NCBI GenBank assembly: GCA_039818665.1
Contig: JBCBTJ010000002.1
Span: 16,195 to 80,194, forward strand
From: Pseudomonadota bacterium
Lineage (GTDB): Bacteria > Pseudomonadota > Alphaproteobacteria > Caulobacterales > Hyphomonadaceae
Direction of reading: 5' to 3'
DNA length: 64,000 nucleotides
Made by a program: the position numbers and the translations under genes. The notes under the pieces were generated by a model. It saw only the letters and a list, made by a program, of their open reading frames with translations. It was not told where the DNA came from and did not search any database. Shown one piece after another: positions 10,912 to 20,869 of this stretch (position 1 is its first letter; each line of letters starts with the position of its first letter).

Positions 10912-11991
10912 TCAGGGCGTCGCGGCGGCGAACCGATCCGGCGCGAAGGCGGCGGCGAGCTCGGACGGCGCGCCGCCCAGCGCCATGTCGGCGACGATCT
11001 CAGCCGTGATCGGCGCGAGCAGCACGCCGTTGCGATAGTGGCCGGTCGCGACGAGCCGGGCCGGCGCGGTCCAACCGATCATCGGCGCATGGTCCGGCGT
11101 CGCGGGGCGAACCCCAGCCCAGGCCTCAAGCACGCCGCCCGCAGCGAGCGTCGGACACAAGCGCGCGGCCCGCGCTTGCAAGTCGGCGACGATTTCGGCG
11201 TCGGCGTCGCCGCGGGTCCGCCCGGGCTCGACCGTGGCGCCGATCAGCGTCCGGTCGGATTTCGGCACGATGTAGAGATCGCCGGCCCGGACGACGCGCG
11301 TCGGCCGCCCGGCGTCCGGCGACAGGGACACGACCTGCCCTCCGACAGGCGCGACGCCCTTCGTCCTCCACCCCGTGCACTGAATGCGGACAGCGGCTTC
11401 GGGCGGTTCCGCGTCGGCGAACGCCACGCCGGCCTGGCGCGCGGCGTCAATGAGCGCGGCGACGACGGCGCGATTGTCGACTTGCATATCCGTCGGCAGC
11501 AGCAAGCCGCCTTCGGTCTCCCCCGACAGCGTCGGCTCCAACGCCCTCGCCTCGGACGCCAAGAGCGCCTCGCTTGCGACGCCCTTCGCCGCGAGGGCGG
11601 CTTCAAGCGCGGCGAGTCTCGCGGCCTCGCCCGCACATGTCGCAATCGCGAGCGTCGGCGTTTTGTCGAAGCCGAGCGCAACGCCAGTCGCCGCGGTCAA
11701 CGCATCGGCGAAGTCCGGCCAAAGCGCCGCGCCGGCCAAACAAAACTCAAATAGCTCAGGGTGCGCGCCCTGTTCGCCCGCCGCCTCAAAACCAGGCGCC
11801 AACATGCCGGCGGCCGCCCAGCTTGCGCCGCGTCCCGGCGCGGCGGTGTCGTAGACCGTGATCCGGGCGCCTCGCCGCGCCAGCGCCCAAGCGCAGGACA
11901 AGCCGATGATCCCGGCGCCGATAATGGCGATGTCGGGCGCGCGGCCAGGTCTATCGGCGGAGGCGGCGGTCATCTCGTCGAGGCATAGCAA
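10912..11991 (-). CDS. thiO: FAD-dependent oxidoreductase, glycine oxidase ThiO-like
   Basis: 359 aa. Dinucleotide-binding DIAIIGAGIIGLSCAWALARRG. DAO-family layout ending in ...HYRNGVLLAPITAE, as in ThiO. The start may be the second ATG at 11973. Confidence 0.6.
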   Translation of the reverse strand: MLCLDEMTAASADRPGRAPDIAIIGAGIIGLSCAWALARRGARITVYDTAAPGRGASWAAAGMLAPGFEAAGEQGAHPELFEFCLAGAALWPDFADALTAATGVALGFDKTPTLAIATCAGEAARLAALEAALAAKGVASEALLASEARALEPTLSGETEGGLLLPTDMQVDNRAVVAALIDAARQAGVAFADAEPPEAAVRIQCTGWRTKGVAPVGGQVVSLSPDAGRPTRVVRAGDLYIVPKSDRTLIGATVEPGRTRGDADAEIVADLQARAARLCPTLAAGGVLEAWAGVRPATPDHAPMIGWTAPARLVATGHYRNGVLLAPITAEIVADMALGGAPSELAAAFAPDRFAAATP

Positions 11992-17699: not shown

Positions 17700-18443
17700 A
17701 TGAGATTTTTGACAGCCTCCGCCTCCCTGCTCGCTTTGTCGGTGACCGCCTGCGCGCAAGAGGCCTCCAACGGCGTGTCCGCCGCCGACAAGGCGGCGAT
17801 CGAGGAGATCGTCCACGCTTACATCCTCGAGAACCCGGAGATCGTTGAAGCGGCCCTCATCCAACTGGGCGAACAACGCGAGGCCGAAGAGGAAGAGCGC
17901 GCGCGCCAAGCGATCCTCGCCCAGGCCGACGCCATCTATAATGATCCGCGCGACTTCAGCATCGGCCCCGCCGACGCGCCGGTCACCGTGGTTGAATTCT
18001 TCGATTATCGCTGCGGCTTCTGCAAAGCTTCCGTGGAATGGGTCACCGCACTGCCCGCCAAACATGACGGCCAAGTGCGCGTGATCTTCAAGGAATTCCC
18101 GATCCTCTCGACCGAGAGCCGCGAGGCCGCGCTCGCCGCGCTCGCCGCCGGGGAACAGGGCAAATATGTCGAGATGCACCGCGCCTTGATGCAATCGCCG
18201 TCGAAACTGTCCGACGACGACATTGAAGAGATCGCCGAGTCCGTCGGGGTCGATATCGCCAAGCTGCGCGCCGACGCGAAGTCGACCGACGTTCAGCGCC
18301 ACGTGGCCGATGTCCGCGCGCTCGCCGAAGCCACGGGCACACGCGCGACGCCGACCTTTATCATCAACGGCGAAGTGGTGTCCGGCTTTGATCGCAGCCG
18401 CCTCGAAGCGGTGATCGACTCCAAGCTGTCCGAGGTCGGTTAG
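17700..18443 (+). CDS. DsbA family thiol:disulfide oxidoreductase
   Basis: 247 aa. Signal peptide and the thioredoxin-fold motif [10 protein letters not shown] (CxxC). Confidence 0.8.
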
Positions 18444-19213
18444 ATCAAACCGGCCAGCGGCGAAGACGGATCGGCGTATCGCTTCTTGCCCATCCGGCCC
18501 GCCAGATAGGCTTCGCGTCCCGCGATCACCGCGTGCTTCATCGCCCGCGCCATCCGCACGGGGTCCTTCGCCTCGGCGATGGCGGTGTTCATCAGCACGC
18601 CGTCGCAACCAAGCTCCATTGCGACTGCGGCGTCCGACGCCGTGCCCACGCCGGCGTCGACGATCACCGGCACGCGCGCCTGCTCGACGATCAGCCGGAT
18701 GTTCACCGGATTTTGCACGCCGAGGCCGGACCCGATCAGCGAGCCGAGCGGCATGATCGCGCAACAGCCCGCCTCCTCCAGCTTGCGCGCATAGACCGGA
18801 TCGTCCGAGCAATAGACCATCACCTCAAACCCGTCTGCGATAAGCTCCTCTGCCGCTTTCAGCGTCTCAGCCATATCGGGATAAAGCGTCTTCTGATCAG
18901 CGAGCACTTCCAGCTTCACGAGCGACCAGCCGCCCGCCTCGCGCGCCAATCGCAGCGTCCGCACAGCGTCTTCGGCGGTGAAGCAGCCCGCCGTATTCGG
19001 GAGGAAAGTGTATTTGTCCGGCGCGACATGGTCGGTCAGCCGGTCTTCGTCCGGATTCGACAAATTCACCCGGCGCAAGGCGACGGTGACGATATCCACG
19101 CCGGCCGCCTCGGCCGCTTCGGCGTTCTGCGCATAAGAGTCGTATTTGCCCGTGCCGATGATGAGGCGCGAGGCGTAAGTCTCGCCAGCGATTGTCAGGG
19201 GGTCGTAAGTCAT
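18440..19213 (-). CDS. thiG: thiazole synthase
   Basis: 257 aa. [20 protein letters not shown] and ...[13 protein letters not shown]... are typical of ThiG. Confidence 0.9.
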
Positions 19214-19266
19214 GGGTGCATTCCATATCTAGTCCTAGAGCGGCCAGCGGCCGGCGCGAGGCGTAT

Positions 19267-20055
19267 TCAGGCGGTGGCGGACGTCTCGTCCGCTGCGAGG
19301 TCGTTTCGATCGAAGACGAAACAGTCGATGGGTTCGATGACGGGGCCCACGGCGTCCGGCGTGTCGCTATAAGCGCGCAAATCGGCGAGCCCTCGCTCGA
19401 ACGCCTCGTCGTCCAATTGGATCAAGGTCGAGTCAGCGCGCAAGGCGATTTTCTTCGCAAATTCCGGCCAGTCGTCTGCCACGCGGCTCTCGACGATCTT
19501 GTGCTCGATCTGCCTGAACCCGCCCTCTTCGAAGCATGACCGCGTCGCCTCGGCGCTTAAGAGGGTGCTGTTCCAAAGCGTCCCCGCCTCTGGAAAGAAC
19601 GGGAGGTAGGGATAACGCAGCGATTGATCGGTCGTCCCCGCCCGCAGGCAGAGGCGGCCTTCCGGGCGCAGCACTCGGCGGCACTCGGCGACGGCGGCGC
19701 CTCGATCGCGAAAGTGATGCAGCGCCATGGAAATGAAGACCAGGTCGACGCCGCCGTCTGGCAATGGAATATCCTCGGCCGGCCCGGATACGAAGCGCAC
19801 TCTGTTGGAGGACACATTGCGCCGGGCGCGGTCTAGCATGGTGGTCGACGGATCGACGCCGATAATGTCGGCTGACAGCCAATCCGCCAGCCGCGCCGAA
19901 TACCGCCCAGTGCCGCAGCCGAGGTCGAGTACGGTCTGGACGTCCACGCCGGCGACAGAATCGACGACCACTCGCCGCCAAAGGGTTTCGGCGTCCCGCC
20001 CATATGCTCGCGCGCGGTCGTACACCGCAGCGGCCGCTGTTTGATCGTAGTCCAT
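19267..20055 (-). CDS. class I SAM-dependent methyltransferase, directly downstream of the TPP riboswitch
   Basis: 262 aa. VLDLGCGTGRY (motif I) and VDLVFISMALHHF. The ATG at 20055 lies 4 nt after the riboswitch 3' end. Confidence 0.75.
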   Translation of the reverse strand: MDYDQTAAAAVYDRARAYGRDAETLWRRVVVDSVAGVDVQTVLDLGCGTGRYSARLADWLSADIIGVDPSTTMLDRARRNVSSNRVRFVSGPAEDIPLPDGGVDLVFISMALHHFRDRGAAVAECRRVLRPEGRLCLRAGTTDQSLRYPYLPFFPEAGTLWNSTLLSAEATRSCFEEGGFRQIEHKIVESRVADDWPEFAKKIALRADSTLIQLDDEAFERGLADLRAYSDTPDAVGPVIEPIDCFVFDRNDLAADETSATA

Positions 20056-20057
20056 AA

Positions 20058-20135
20058 ATGACTCCCTACGCTGGCATTACCCAGACAGGTTCAACGGGTA
20101 TGATCTCAGCCCGTGCGGGCACCCCGGTCAGATGA
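20058..20135 (-). promoter_or_regulatory. TPP (THI-box) riboswitch
   Basis: The minus strand reads GACCGGGGTGCCCGCACGGGCTGAGATCATACCCGTTGAACCTGTCTGGGTAATGCCAGCGTAGGGAGTCATTTATG. It contains the conserved GGGGTGC, CTGAGA, ACCC, GAACCTG..CTGG.TAATGCCAGCGTAGGGA blocks in the correct order. Confidence 0.85.
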
Positions 20136-20164
20136 GTTTTCGCCGAACGGCGTCTCGTGTCAAT

Positions 20165-20365
20165 TCAACCGCCGCCGACGAACTGGACGACCTCCAAGCG
20201 GTCCCCCTCGCCGAGCGCGGTCCGCCCATGTTCGGATTTCGGCACGATTTCGCGATTGCGTTCGATGGCGACGCCGCGCGGGTCTCCGCCGAGCGTGGCG
20301 ACGAGCTCGGACAAGAGCAGGCCTTCGGCCACGTCGCGCGCCTCGCCGTTCACATAAATCCGCAC
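20165..20365 (-). CDS. thiS: sulfur carrier protein ThiS
   Basis: 66 aa, MRIYVNGE...VVQFVGGG, with a C-terminal GG. Confidence 0.85.
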
Positions 20366-20425: not shown

Positions 20426-20869
20426 ATGTCAAAACCCATTTATGTTCTCAATGGGCCGAATCTCAACCTGTTGGGACAACGCGAACCGGAGATCTACGGG
20501 TCGGCCACGCTCGACGACATCCGCCGCCGCCTCGAAGACAAAGCCGGGTCCACGGCGATCGAGTTCCGCCAAACCAATCACGAAGGCGAGTTGGTCGATT
20601 GGATCCAAGAGGCCTCAGCCAATGCCGCTGCGGTCATTCTAAACGCCGGGGCGTACACCCACACCTCCGTCGCGGTGCACGACGCCCTGCGCGCCTGCGC
20701 GCCGCCGGTGATCGAAGTCCACCTGTCGAACCCGGCCGCGCGCGAGCCCTTTCGCGCCGCGAACTTCGTCGCGCCGGCCGCCCATGGGTCGATCACGGGA
20801 CTCGGGGCATATGGATACGAACTGGCGCTCGACGCCGCCCGCCATCTTGCGACTGAGGGGGATCGTTAG
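20426..20869 (+). CDS. aroQ: type II 3-dehydroquinate dehydratase
   Basis: Internal ATG of ORF 20132-20869. [25 protein letters not shown]...HLSN are canonical AroQ motifs. Confidence 0.9.

Follow-up and report, generated by a model that had tools for sequence, protein, structure and literature searches.

A thiamine pyrophosphate riboswitch between thiS and thiG precedes an inserted methyltransferase gene whose family recurrently follows such switches

Here, we describe the thiS-thiG locus of a Hyphomonadaceae genome, contained in a 64-kb stretch of contig JBCBTJ010000002.1 (the window), in which a thiamine pyrophosphate (TPP) riboswitch is followed directly by a gene for a 262-amino-acid (aa) S-adenosylmethionine (SAM)-dependent methyltransferase (hereafter MT). 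We consider it likely that the switch is thiG's own, that MT was inserted behind it in register, and that MT, whose family is itself a recurrent target of TPP switches, is a thiamine-related enzyme. The first-pass annotation of this DNA had offered as alternatives that the methyltransferase has a thiamine-related role or that it inserted between the switch and thiG; our comparisons support both holding together, with an MT that would be thiamine-related and would have been inserted behind the switch. Few guides to missing genes of vitamin metabolism have been as productive as riboswitch regulons, and many known thiamine transporters and salvage enzymes were found by asking what follows THI elements. 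The association of one MT family with TPP switches at 15 diverged loci points to a step of methylation, so far undescribed, in the metabolism of thiamine, in damage control or in defence against antivitamins. The locus also illustrates how a riboswitch may change target: with a gene inserted in register with its ribosome site, the original target, thiG, would no longer be controlled directly. As the switch-MT unit is short and complete in itself, the claim is open to direct testing.

Profile and covariance-model searches over the window gave the minus-strand order thiS, TPP riboswitch, MT, thiG. Each of these elements lies where the first-pass annotation had placed it, and the gaps around the switch, MT and thiG agreed with its layout on re-measurement. 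The gene for the sulfur-carrier protein ThiS (66 aa, GTG start) is at 20165..20365 (-), with its stop codon at 20165 (TIGR01683, 78 bits against a cut-off of 37.45; PF02597, 54 bits); it is upstream of and outside the riboswitch-controlled unit, the same as in relatives. A promoter-like box recognised by sequence conservation follows at 20135..20163 (-), with TTGACA at 20163-20158 and AAAACT at 20140-20135, 17 nt apart. The aptamer (THI element), a compact form without the optional P3a hairpin, starts at 20136 and occupies 20046..20136 (-), where cmscan aligned it to all of RF00059 (model positions 1-105 of 105) at 73.8 bits against a gathering score of 54.3 (E 1.2e-12); the covariance model thereby confirms the predicted riboswitch, which is the single RNA family found in the window. 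Embedded in the aptamer, according to the Rfam alignment and the sequence, is the Shine-Dalgarno motif of MT, AGGGAG (20062..20067, -), 6 nt 5' of the ATG. MT itself, a class I enzyme by Pfam Methyltransf_11/25, extends over 19267..20055 (-) with its ATG at 20055-20053, and a 53-nt spacer (19214..19266, -) separates its stop from the ATG of thiG; alignment of the window's genome (G000) with two relatives, G001 and G008, drew attention to GGAATGCA at 19224-19217 in this spacer. The thiazole synthase gene thiG (257 aa) is at 18440..19213 (-) (PF05690, 372.5 bits). The ThiS and ThiG family models both scored above their cut-offs, and the adjacency of the two genes is conserved among relatives.

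The first-pass annotation had contrasted the position of the switch, inside a thiS-thiG cluster, with the usual place of THI-boxes before thiC or the first gene of thiOSGE-type operons. The position is not anomalous, as the same compact switch stands before thiG in nine relatives: G001, which is the sole other genome of the same genus, G008 from another genus, and seven genomes of genus g2. By synteny comparison, the order aroQ<->thiS-thiG<-dsbA is conserved across the whole bacterial order. Among the thiG loci of 29 relatives compared, the aroQ<->thiS order is kept in nearly all and thiS is upstream of thiG in 27, and thiG was 72-91% identical to the main thiG copy in 40 of 40 relatives. In the window, aroQ (type II 3-dehydroquinase; 20426..20869, +; PF01220, 183 bits) diverges from thiS over a spacer measured at 60 bp, as had been estimated earlier. 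Most relatives have a thiS-thiG gap of 20-60 nt and no switch. In G001, the spacer is 154 nt long and contains a TPP switch (58.1 bits) that passes at its 3' end, GCGTAGGAAGGAATGCATG, straight into thiG; in G008 a TPP switch (62.1 bits) likewise stands directly before thiG, as does a promoter-like box with a TPP switch in the seven g2 genomes, and none of the nine has MT at this site. An internal thiS-thiG switch is the norm in one sub-lineage of the bacterial family and not an oddity of the window's genome. These loci resemble that of the window in position, TTGACAC box, compact aptamer and flanking aroQ, thiS, thiG and dsbA; the signature GCGTAGG is common to the window's switch and all thiG-type switches, and the stretch TTGACAC...TTCGGCGAAAACT is almost entirely shared with G001. 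Judged by these shared elements, the window's switch is the vertical counterpart of the thiG switches of its relatives. The difference lies in what follows, since in the nine relatives the ribosome site of the switch, GGAAGGA, serves thiG directly, whereas in the window about 826 nt, including MT, intervene. The ancestral state would have been a thiG control unit in the thiS-thiG spacer, made up of a sigma-70-type promoter after the thiS stop and a compact TPP aptamer carrying the ribosome site.

MT is an insertion specific to the window's genome at the thiS-thiG site. A full-length homologue was present in only one of 40 relatives (G029, 50% identity), where its neighbours are a response regulator and an Ada-like gene and no switch is present. 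In G001, which is 98% complete, the search for MT returned SAM-binding-core matches only and no MT, and just one of 400 genomes of the class had an MT homologue. Insertion between switch and thiG, as proposed in the first-pass annotation, is borne out by the lack of MT in 39 of the 40 relatives and by the nine that keep the switch directly before thiG. The left edge of the insertion falls within a few bases between GCGTAGG and the ATG, two elements that are 9 nt apart for MT, 9 nt apart for thiG in G001 and 8 nt apart in G008. The right edge is just before GGAATGCA, which G001 carries between switch and thiG ATG. MT has a 12-residue C-terminal extension relative to its family, and its codon fit to the neighbouring genes is the poorest of 12 genes, with ordinary GC content. 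In the event that we envisage, the MT gene would have been placed in register behind the resident aptamer, so that its ATG would occupy the ancestral site of the thiG ATG, with thiG displaced 842 nt downstream. On the most economical account, an incoming [TPP switch-MT] unit would have recombined with the resident [TPP switch-thiG] unit through about 70 nt of shared aptamer, with an illegitimate join at the right. Such aptamer-aptamer recombination is suggested because the MT family often has its own switch, because aptamer cores agree from one locus to another at about 85% of positions along a stretch of roughly 70 nt, and because the ATG is in register.

Three further ideas about the junctions were rejected. 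A decayed second copy of the switch after MT, of the kind left by Campbell-type integration, found no support, as 19211-19330 aligned with 20053-20175 no better than shuffles did (local 167/1000, global 51/500). Capture of the first codons of thiG by MT was considered since MDYDQTAA resembles MDDDQTAG of ThiG in G008, but MDYDxT is invariant in the MT family, and the likeness of the two N-termini is likely to be chance or at most microhomology. The idea that the window's switch is a visible chimera of a resident 5' and an incoming 3' part was likewise set aside, its AGGGA being Rfam consensus and only a few bases possibly foreign.

The spacer between thiS and thiG appears as an insertion hot spot in the bacterial family, with other, unrelated genes in four genomes. 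These are multi-pass membrane proteins of 319-334 aa on the opposite strand in G002 and G019 of genus g2 (L031 2489-3448, +; L030 244-1248, -), a 177-aa secreted-looking protein in G016 (L035 923-1456, -) and a 109-aa open reading frame in G015 (L037 2353-2682, -). Besides its syntenic pair, G002 carries another thiS-thiG pair, a divergent one (ThiG 52% identical), which is preceded by a TPP riboswitch of its own at 67.2 bits (L094, G002:C59, 635-2909). A further internal switch of a thi cluster occurs in genus g24, which belongs to a different family of the order: some 40-55 nt past the end of thiG there is a TPP riboswitch, which would control the gene that follows (G031:C3:305988-306115, G035:C2:618501-618628 and G039:C2:335251-335377).

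The second part of the argument concerns the MT family, which comprises 1075 proteins at E <= 1e-20, the best of them 50% identical to MT, and has no characterised member. RF00059 scored above its cut-off directly before an MT homologue in 14 other loci, namely in G128, whose genome belongs to a different family of the class (60.4 bits, the switch ending at the start codon of the homologue), in L080 and L083 (65.6 and 62.3 bits, again ending at the start codon), and in 11 metagenome contigs. These contigs came from a search for the aptamer cores linked with the family N-terminus in a single pattern, CTGAGA...GAACCTG...ATGRAYTAYGAYNNNAC; of the 12 metagenome contigs matched, 11 had an MT homologue immediately preceded by RF00059 (58.1-65.4 bits). 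For an estimate of enrichment, 15 homologue loci chosen without regard to a switch were used, three of which (G128, L080 and L083) had a switch above the Rfam cut-off. With 1-3 TPP switches per genome of about 3000 genes, the chance rate is about 1 in 1000 per random gene, so that three of 15 is about 200 times the chance rate (rough binomial estimate, p of order 1e-6). Pairwise identity among the switch-linked MTs is 52-92%, and their identity to the window's MT is 44-50%; at such values, these loci are old, diverged copies and not one clone. The majority stand alone as one-gene units between convergent or divergent neighbours. By these counts, the MT family is a recurrent target of predicted TPP riboswitches rather than a random passenger, and the 14 further loci lend support to the thiamine-related role that had been offered as one alternative. 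The co-occurrence of the family with THI-boxes that an earlier proposal had asked for is seen in the 14 other loci; no thi gene adjoins MT in any of them.

All 14 other MT-linked switches keep one design, a TTGAC box, an aptamer without P3a, AAGGGAG (GCGAAGGGAG), 4-9 nt and the start codon, and all 14 have GCGAAGG, as against GCGTAGG in the thiG-type switches and the window's switch. The three TPP switches of G128 precede thiC, thiO and the MT homologue, respectively. Its thiO switch (L099, G128:C419, 1501-1593, -) has the same compact design, with a TTGACA box, GCGAAGGGAGC, 6 nt and ATG; since it shares that design, the compact form is a general feature among these bacteria rather than a hallmark of the MT unit.

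A maximum-likelihood tree was built from 67 family members, 12 of them known at that time to be switch-linked. Eleven of the 12 fell into one clade (Shimodaira-Hasegawa-like approximate likelihood ratio test, SH-aLRT, 94), along with one verified switch-less member. The window's MT grouped instead (SH-aLRT 97) with P0028, later found to be switch-linked, and with the switch-less P0002 and P0004. On this tree, switch linkage is an old trait that was lost repeatedly, or it was acquired on more than one occasion, and either course would speak for selection.

Other features of the homologue loci were recorded in passing. Two switch-less MT homologues lie downstream of 6S RNA (ssrS; L054 2149-2304, +, and L067 2240-2398, +), and in L067 a 5-formyltetrahydrofolate cyclo-ligase gene directly precedes the MT homologue. 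NUDIX hydrolase genes adjoin three homologues (L072 82-597, -; L083 1774-2169, +; L082 3367-3861, +), the one in L072 overlapping the MT stop behind the same TPP switch. A NUDIX hydrolase as conserved partner of MT was rejected, as the three proteins are non-orthologous and share only the Nudix box. Transposase or integrase genes stand beside several homologues (L064 1-2760 and 6129-6804; L069 1386-1988; L081 4114-5245), which fits an MT gene moving between genomes.

To see how the switch might act on MT, it is useful to consider where the ribosome site sits within the aptamer. The ligand-contact cores, CUGAGA of the pyrimidine-sensor arm and ACCUG and GCG-AGGGA of the pyrophosphate-sensor arm, are present in the switch and invariant across 17 homologous switches. 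RNAalifold on these 17 recovered P2-P5, with both-side (compensatory) changes at four P3 pairs, and did not recover P1. In the Rfam alignment, the P1 strands are 20131-20127 (5') and 20062-20058 (3'), with possible pairs U20130-A20059, G20129-C20060, A20128-U20061 and C20127-G20062. AGGGAG at 20067-20062 consists of the last three bases of the P4 3' strand, two junction bases and the first base of the P1 3' strand, in keeping with the earlier claim that the Shine-Dalgarno motif lies inside the 3' segment of the riboswitch. The single-sequence minimum-free-energy fold of the leader was uninformative (z = -0.44). Rfam marks 1-3 non-canonical P1 pairs in the switches of the window's genome, G001 and G008, and compact aptamers may function with almost no closing helix. 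Since AGGGAG sits in the 3' strands of the aptamer, TPP binding should block MT translation by sequestering this motif. At high TPP, the aptamer would fold on its ligand and P4/P5, together with whatever P1 forms, would enclose AGGGAG, leaving MT untranslated; at low TPP, AGGGAG would be free and MT made. MT and thiG are probably co-transcribed, as a terminator scan found no terminator-like site between them on the minus strand, and thiG would be read off the same transcript through GGAA, a weak ribosome site of its own that lies 7 nt 5' of the ATG. Direct gating of thiG would now be lost, its control being at most indirect, through polarity or decay of untranslated mRNA. By eye, the MT-thiG spacer also holds a short GC-rich hairpin, CGGCC-GCT-GGCCG, at 19241-19257 (-) with no T-run after it, which might have a part in RNA processing or stability, or no role at all.

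The promoter-like box abuts the aptamer closely, with TTGACA beginning 2 nt past the thiS stop codon and AAAACT ending 4 nt before the P1 5' strand. Across the 17 aligned switches and seven g2 loci, TTGAC stands at a fixed distance from CCGGGG, as do the A and T of the -10-like hexamer; these bases vary hardly or not at all, in contrast to those between TTGAC and the hexamer, which vary freely. A consensus promoter scan did not call the box, its -10 matching at only three of six bases, and the loose pattern alone is not rare in the window (three found against 1.1 expected), so that by itself it says little. The switch nevertheless probably has its own sigma-70-type promoter and is not merely inside a thiS-thiG transcript, a conclusion drawn from the invariance of the box in all 24 compact switches compared and not from the consensus scan. 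The distance from the end of the -10-like box to CCGGGG is 7-9 nt in 24 of 24 compact switches, from which we infer that the transcript starts inside or at the P1 5' strand.

To discern what MT might do, we examined its sequence and its predicted structure. Pfam assigned it to Methyltransf_11 (PF08241, 97.9 bits, cut-off 21.2) and Methyltransf_25 (PF13649, 94.1 bits). The family, of about 250 aa, has an invariant N-terminus, MDYDxT, and an invariant SAM-binding motif I, LDLGCGTGR, at MT residues 43-51. MT looks functional and not decaying, since, of the 63 positions conserved at 90% or more among 64 relatives, it retains 61. Its AlphaFold2 model (predicted local distance difference test score, pLDDT, 95.3; predicted template-modelling score, pTM, 0.91) has a Rossmann-like seven-strand fold, and Foldseek matched it at probability 1.00 to RebM, AtmM, GtmA and others (E-values 1e-17 to 1e-14), the highest TM-score, 0.72, being to the thiol S-methyltransferases GtmA/TmtA. 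By its modelled fold, MT is a small-molecule SAM methyltransferase. RebM/AtmM (sugar O-methylation), GtmA/TmtA (gliotoxin-type thiol S-methylation) and TTHA0223 share with MT the Rossmann core and a C-terminal cap; they differ from it in being only 18-25% identical, and the N-terminal MDYDxT...YD..R helix and the C-terminal half of the MT family lack any characterised counterpart. No NCBIfam equivalog was reached, BioC, ArsM, Tam, CmoB and the rest of the 25 listed families all scoring far below their cut-offs. The quinone C-methyltransferase UbiE/MenG, a name some sources give to homologues, was rejected at 80.7 bits against 158.35 for TIGR01934 and 71.4 against 216 for NF001244, these models aligning to the SAM-binding half of MT only. 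A sequence search of the Protein Data Bank similarly matched only the SAM-binding core (residues ~40-137) and gave no clue to the substrate.

Because the MT family is itself a recurrent target of TPP riboswitches, a thiamine-related function is likely, and MT would most likely act on a thiamine-related compound, in salvage, damage control or the detoxification of a precursor analogue. A bolder version, to which we give somewhat less than even weight, is that the MDYDxT family is an undescribed enzyme of thiamine metabolism, made when TPP is scarce and methylating a thiamine-related small molecule, with the aptamer acting as a homology patch that moves riboswitch-gene units into thi loci. Salvage of a demethylated or damaged pyrimidine or thiazole precursor, or the disarming of an analogue taken up from soil, might serve as examples, offered as tentatively. 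Several findings weigh against the interpretation that we prefer. Twelve of the 15 homologue loci in the sample taken irrespective of a switch have neither a switch nor a thi neighbour and lie in varied, unrelated surroundings. Even among the 14 other switch-MT loci no thi gene stands beside MT, and since they lack such neighbours they give no pointer to the substrate. The window's MT is on a long branch (0.89) outside the main switch-linked clade, and forcing it into that clade costs 24 log-likelihood units (approximately unbiased test, p-AU 0.047), so its linkage to a switch may be a separate event. Furthermore, the predicted transcription start is at or within the P1 5' strand and RNAalifold finds no P1, which leaves the mode of hiding the ribosome site uncertain, and the recombination route rests on a junction of a few bases, beyond statistical test.

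Some of these points would suit a neutral hitch-hiker, an MT unrelated to thiamine that landed by chance between switch and thiG and came under TPP control by accident. Its absence from the same-genus genome and 38 other relatives, its poor codon fit, the unrelated, variable and switch-less contexts of most family members examined, and the uptake of unrelated genes by the same spacer in G002, G019, G016 and G015 are all in line with this explanation. We nonetheless regard it as unlikely, given the 14 other switch-MT loci with 52-92% protein identity and differing surroundings, at about 200 times the rate for a random gene, and given that the MT ATG is in register with the ribosome site of the switch and that 61 of 63 conserved positions are kept.

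The direction of events could also be reversed, if a cassette of promoter, TPP switch and MT had entered the thiS-thiG spacer in an ancestor and MT had then been deleted in all other lineages, leaving the switch to gate thiG; the sub-lineage's thiG switch would then descend from that of MT. The design shared by thiG-type and MT-type switches (distance of the TTGAC box, no P3a, ribosome site in the aptamer 3' end) would be explained in this way, and one gain of a switch must have occurred somewhere, as most family members have thiS and thiG 20-60 nt apart with none. Yet at least three independent precise deletions of MT (in genera g1, g8 and g2) would be required in place of one insertion, GCGTAGG sets the thiG-type switches and the window's switch apart from the GCGAAGG of the 14 other MT-type switches, and the compact design, found also before thiO in G128, is generic; we hold this course of events to be quite improbable. 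An assembly artefact, in which a metagenome-assembled contig was mis-joined through the conserved aptamer so that MT is not truly beside thiS and thiG, seems more doubtful still, to the point of being very improbable. The assembly has 86 contigs and is 83% complete, the MT protein is known from one contig only, and the similarity of aptamer cores between loci would permit such an error. Against this, a mis-join at the aptamer explains the left junction only, the right junction having no repeat and keeping the thiG leader GGAATGCA, GC is even across the region, and the contig extends over 95 kb with conserved synteny on both sides. Insertion of a thiamine-related MT behind thiG's own switch is the explanation that we favour.

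The remaining thiamine genes of this genome are dispersed. A thiO-like FAD oxidase gene, unlinked to the locus, lies at 10912..11991 (-) (TIGR02352, 243.9 bits, just below the cut-off of 250.8); it has no riboswitch, in agreement with the first-pass annotation, RF00059 having no second match elsewhere in the 64-kb window. A covariance-model search of the whole assembly found two TPP switches, that of the window and one before thiC, and thiE and thiD are encoded elsewhere in the same assembly.

How, then, does this locus compare with known systems? Rodionov et al. reportedly predicted, in 2002, translational TPP riboswitches for thi genes of Gram-negative bacteria, and one such THI element precedes E. 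coli thiM. With this type the window's switch has in common the canonical cores, P2-P5, a position in the 5' leader and a ribosome site that is hidden with ligand (here as a prediction). It differs in having no separate expression platform, the ribosome site lying in the 3' strands of the aptamer, and in a promoter-like box that abuts the aptamer, such that P1 can have at most 4-5 bp. It differs, too, in that the first controlled gene is a methyltransferase and not a gene of thiamine synthesis, salvage or transport, and we know of no place for a methyltransferase in the textbook thiazole, pyrimidine or salvage routes. In literature searches, we found no description of a stand-alone methyltransferase under TPP-switch control, the only precedent being the bacimethrin operon. 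The thiaminase I/bacimethrin operons of Paenibacillus are regulated by TPP riboswitches and include a SAM-dependent methyltransferase whose substrate is a pyrimidine analogue of hydroxymethylpyrimidine (HMP), a thiamine precursor; its partners are a glycosyltransferase, a thymidylate-synthase-like enzyme, a Nudix hydrolase and thiaminase I (PMC5627462). Compared by gene neighbourhood, the two systems differ in that these partner genes are absent beside all 15 switch-MT loci; the operon remains a precedent for a SAM methyltransferase under TPP-riboswitch control. Set beside these systems, the riboswitch and its mode of action are known in kind; the novelty is one of variants, in the family of genes brought under control and in a resident switch taken over in register.

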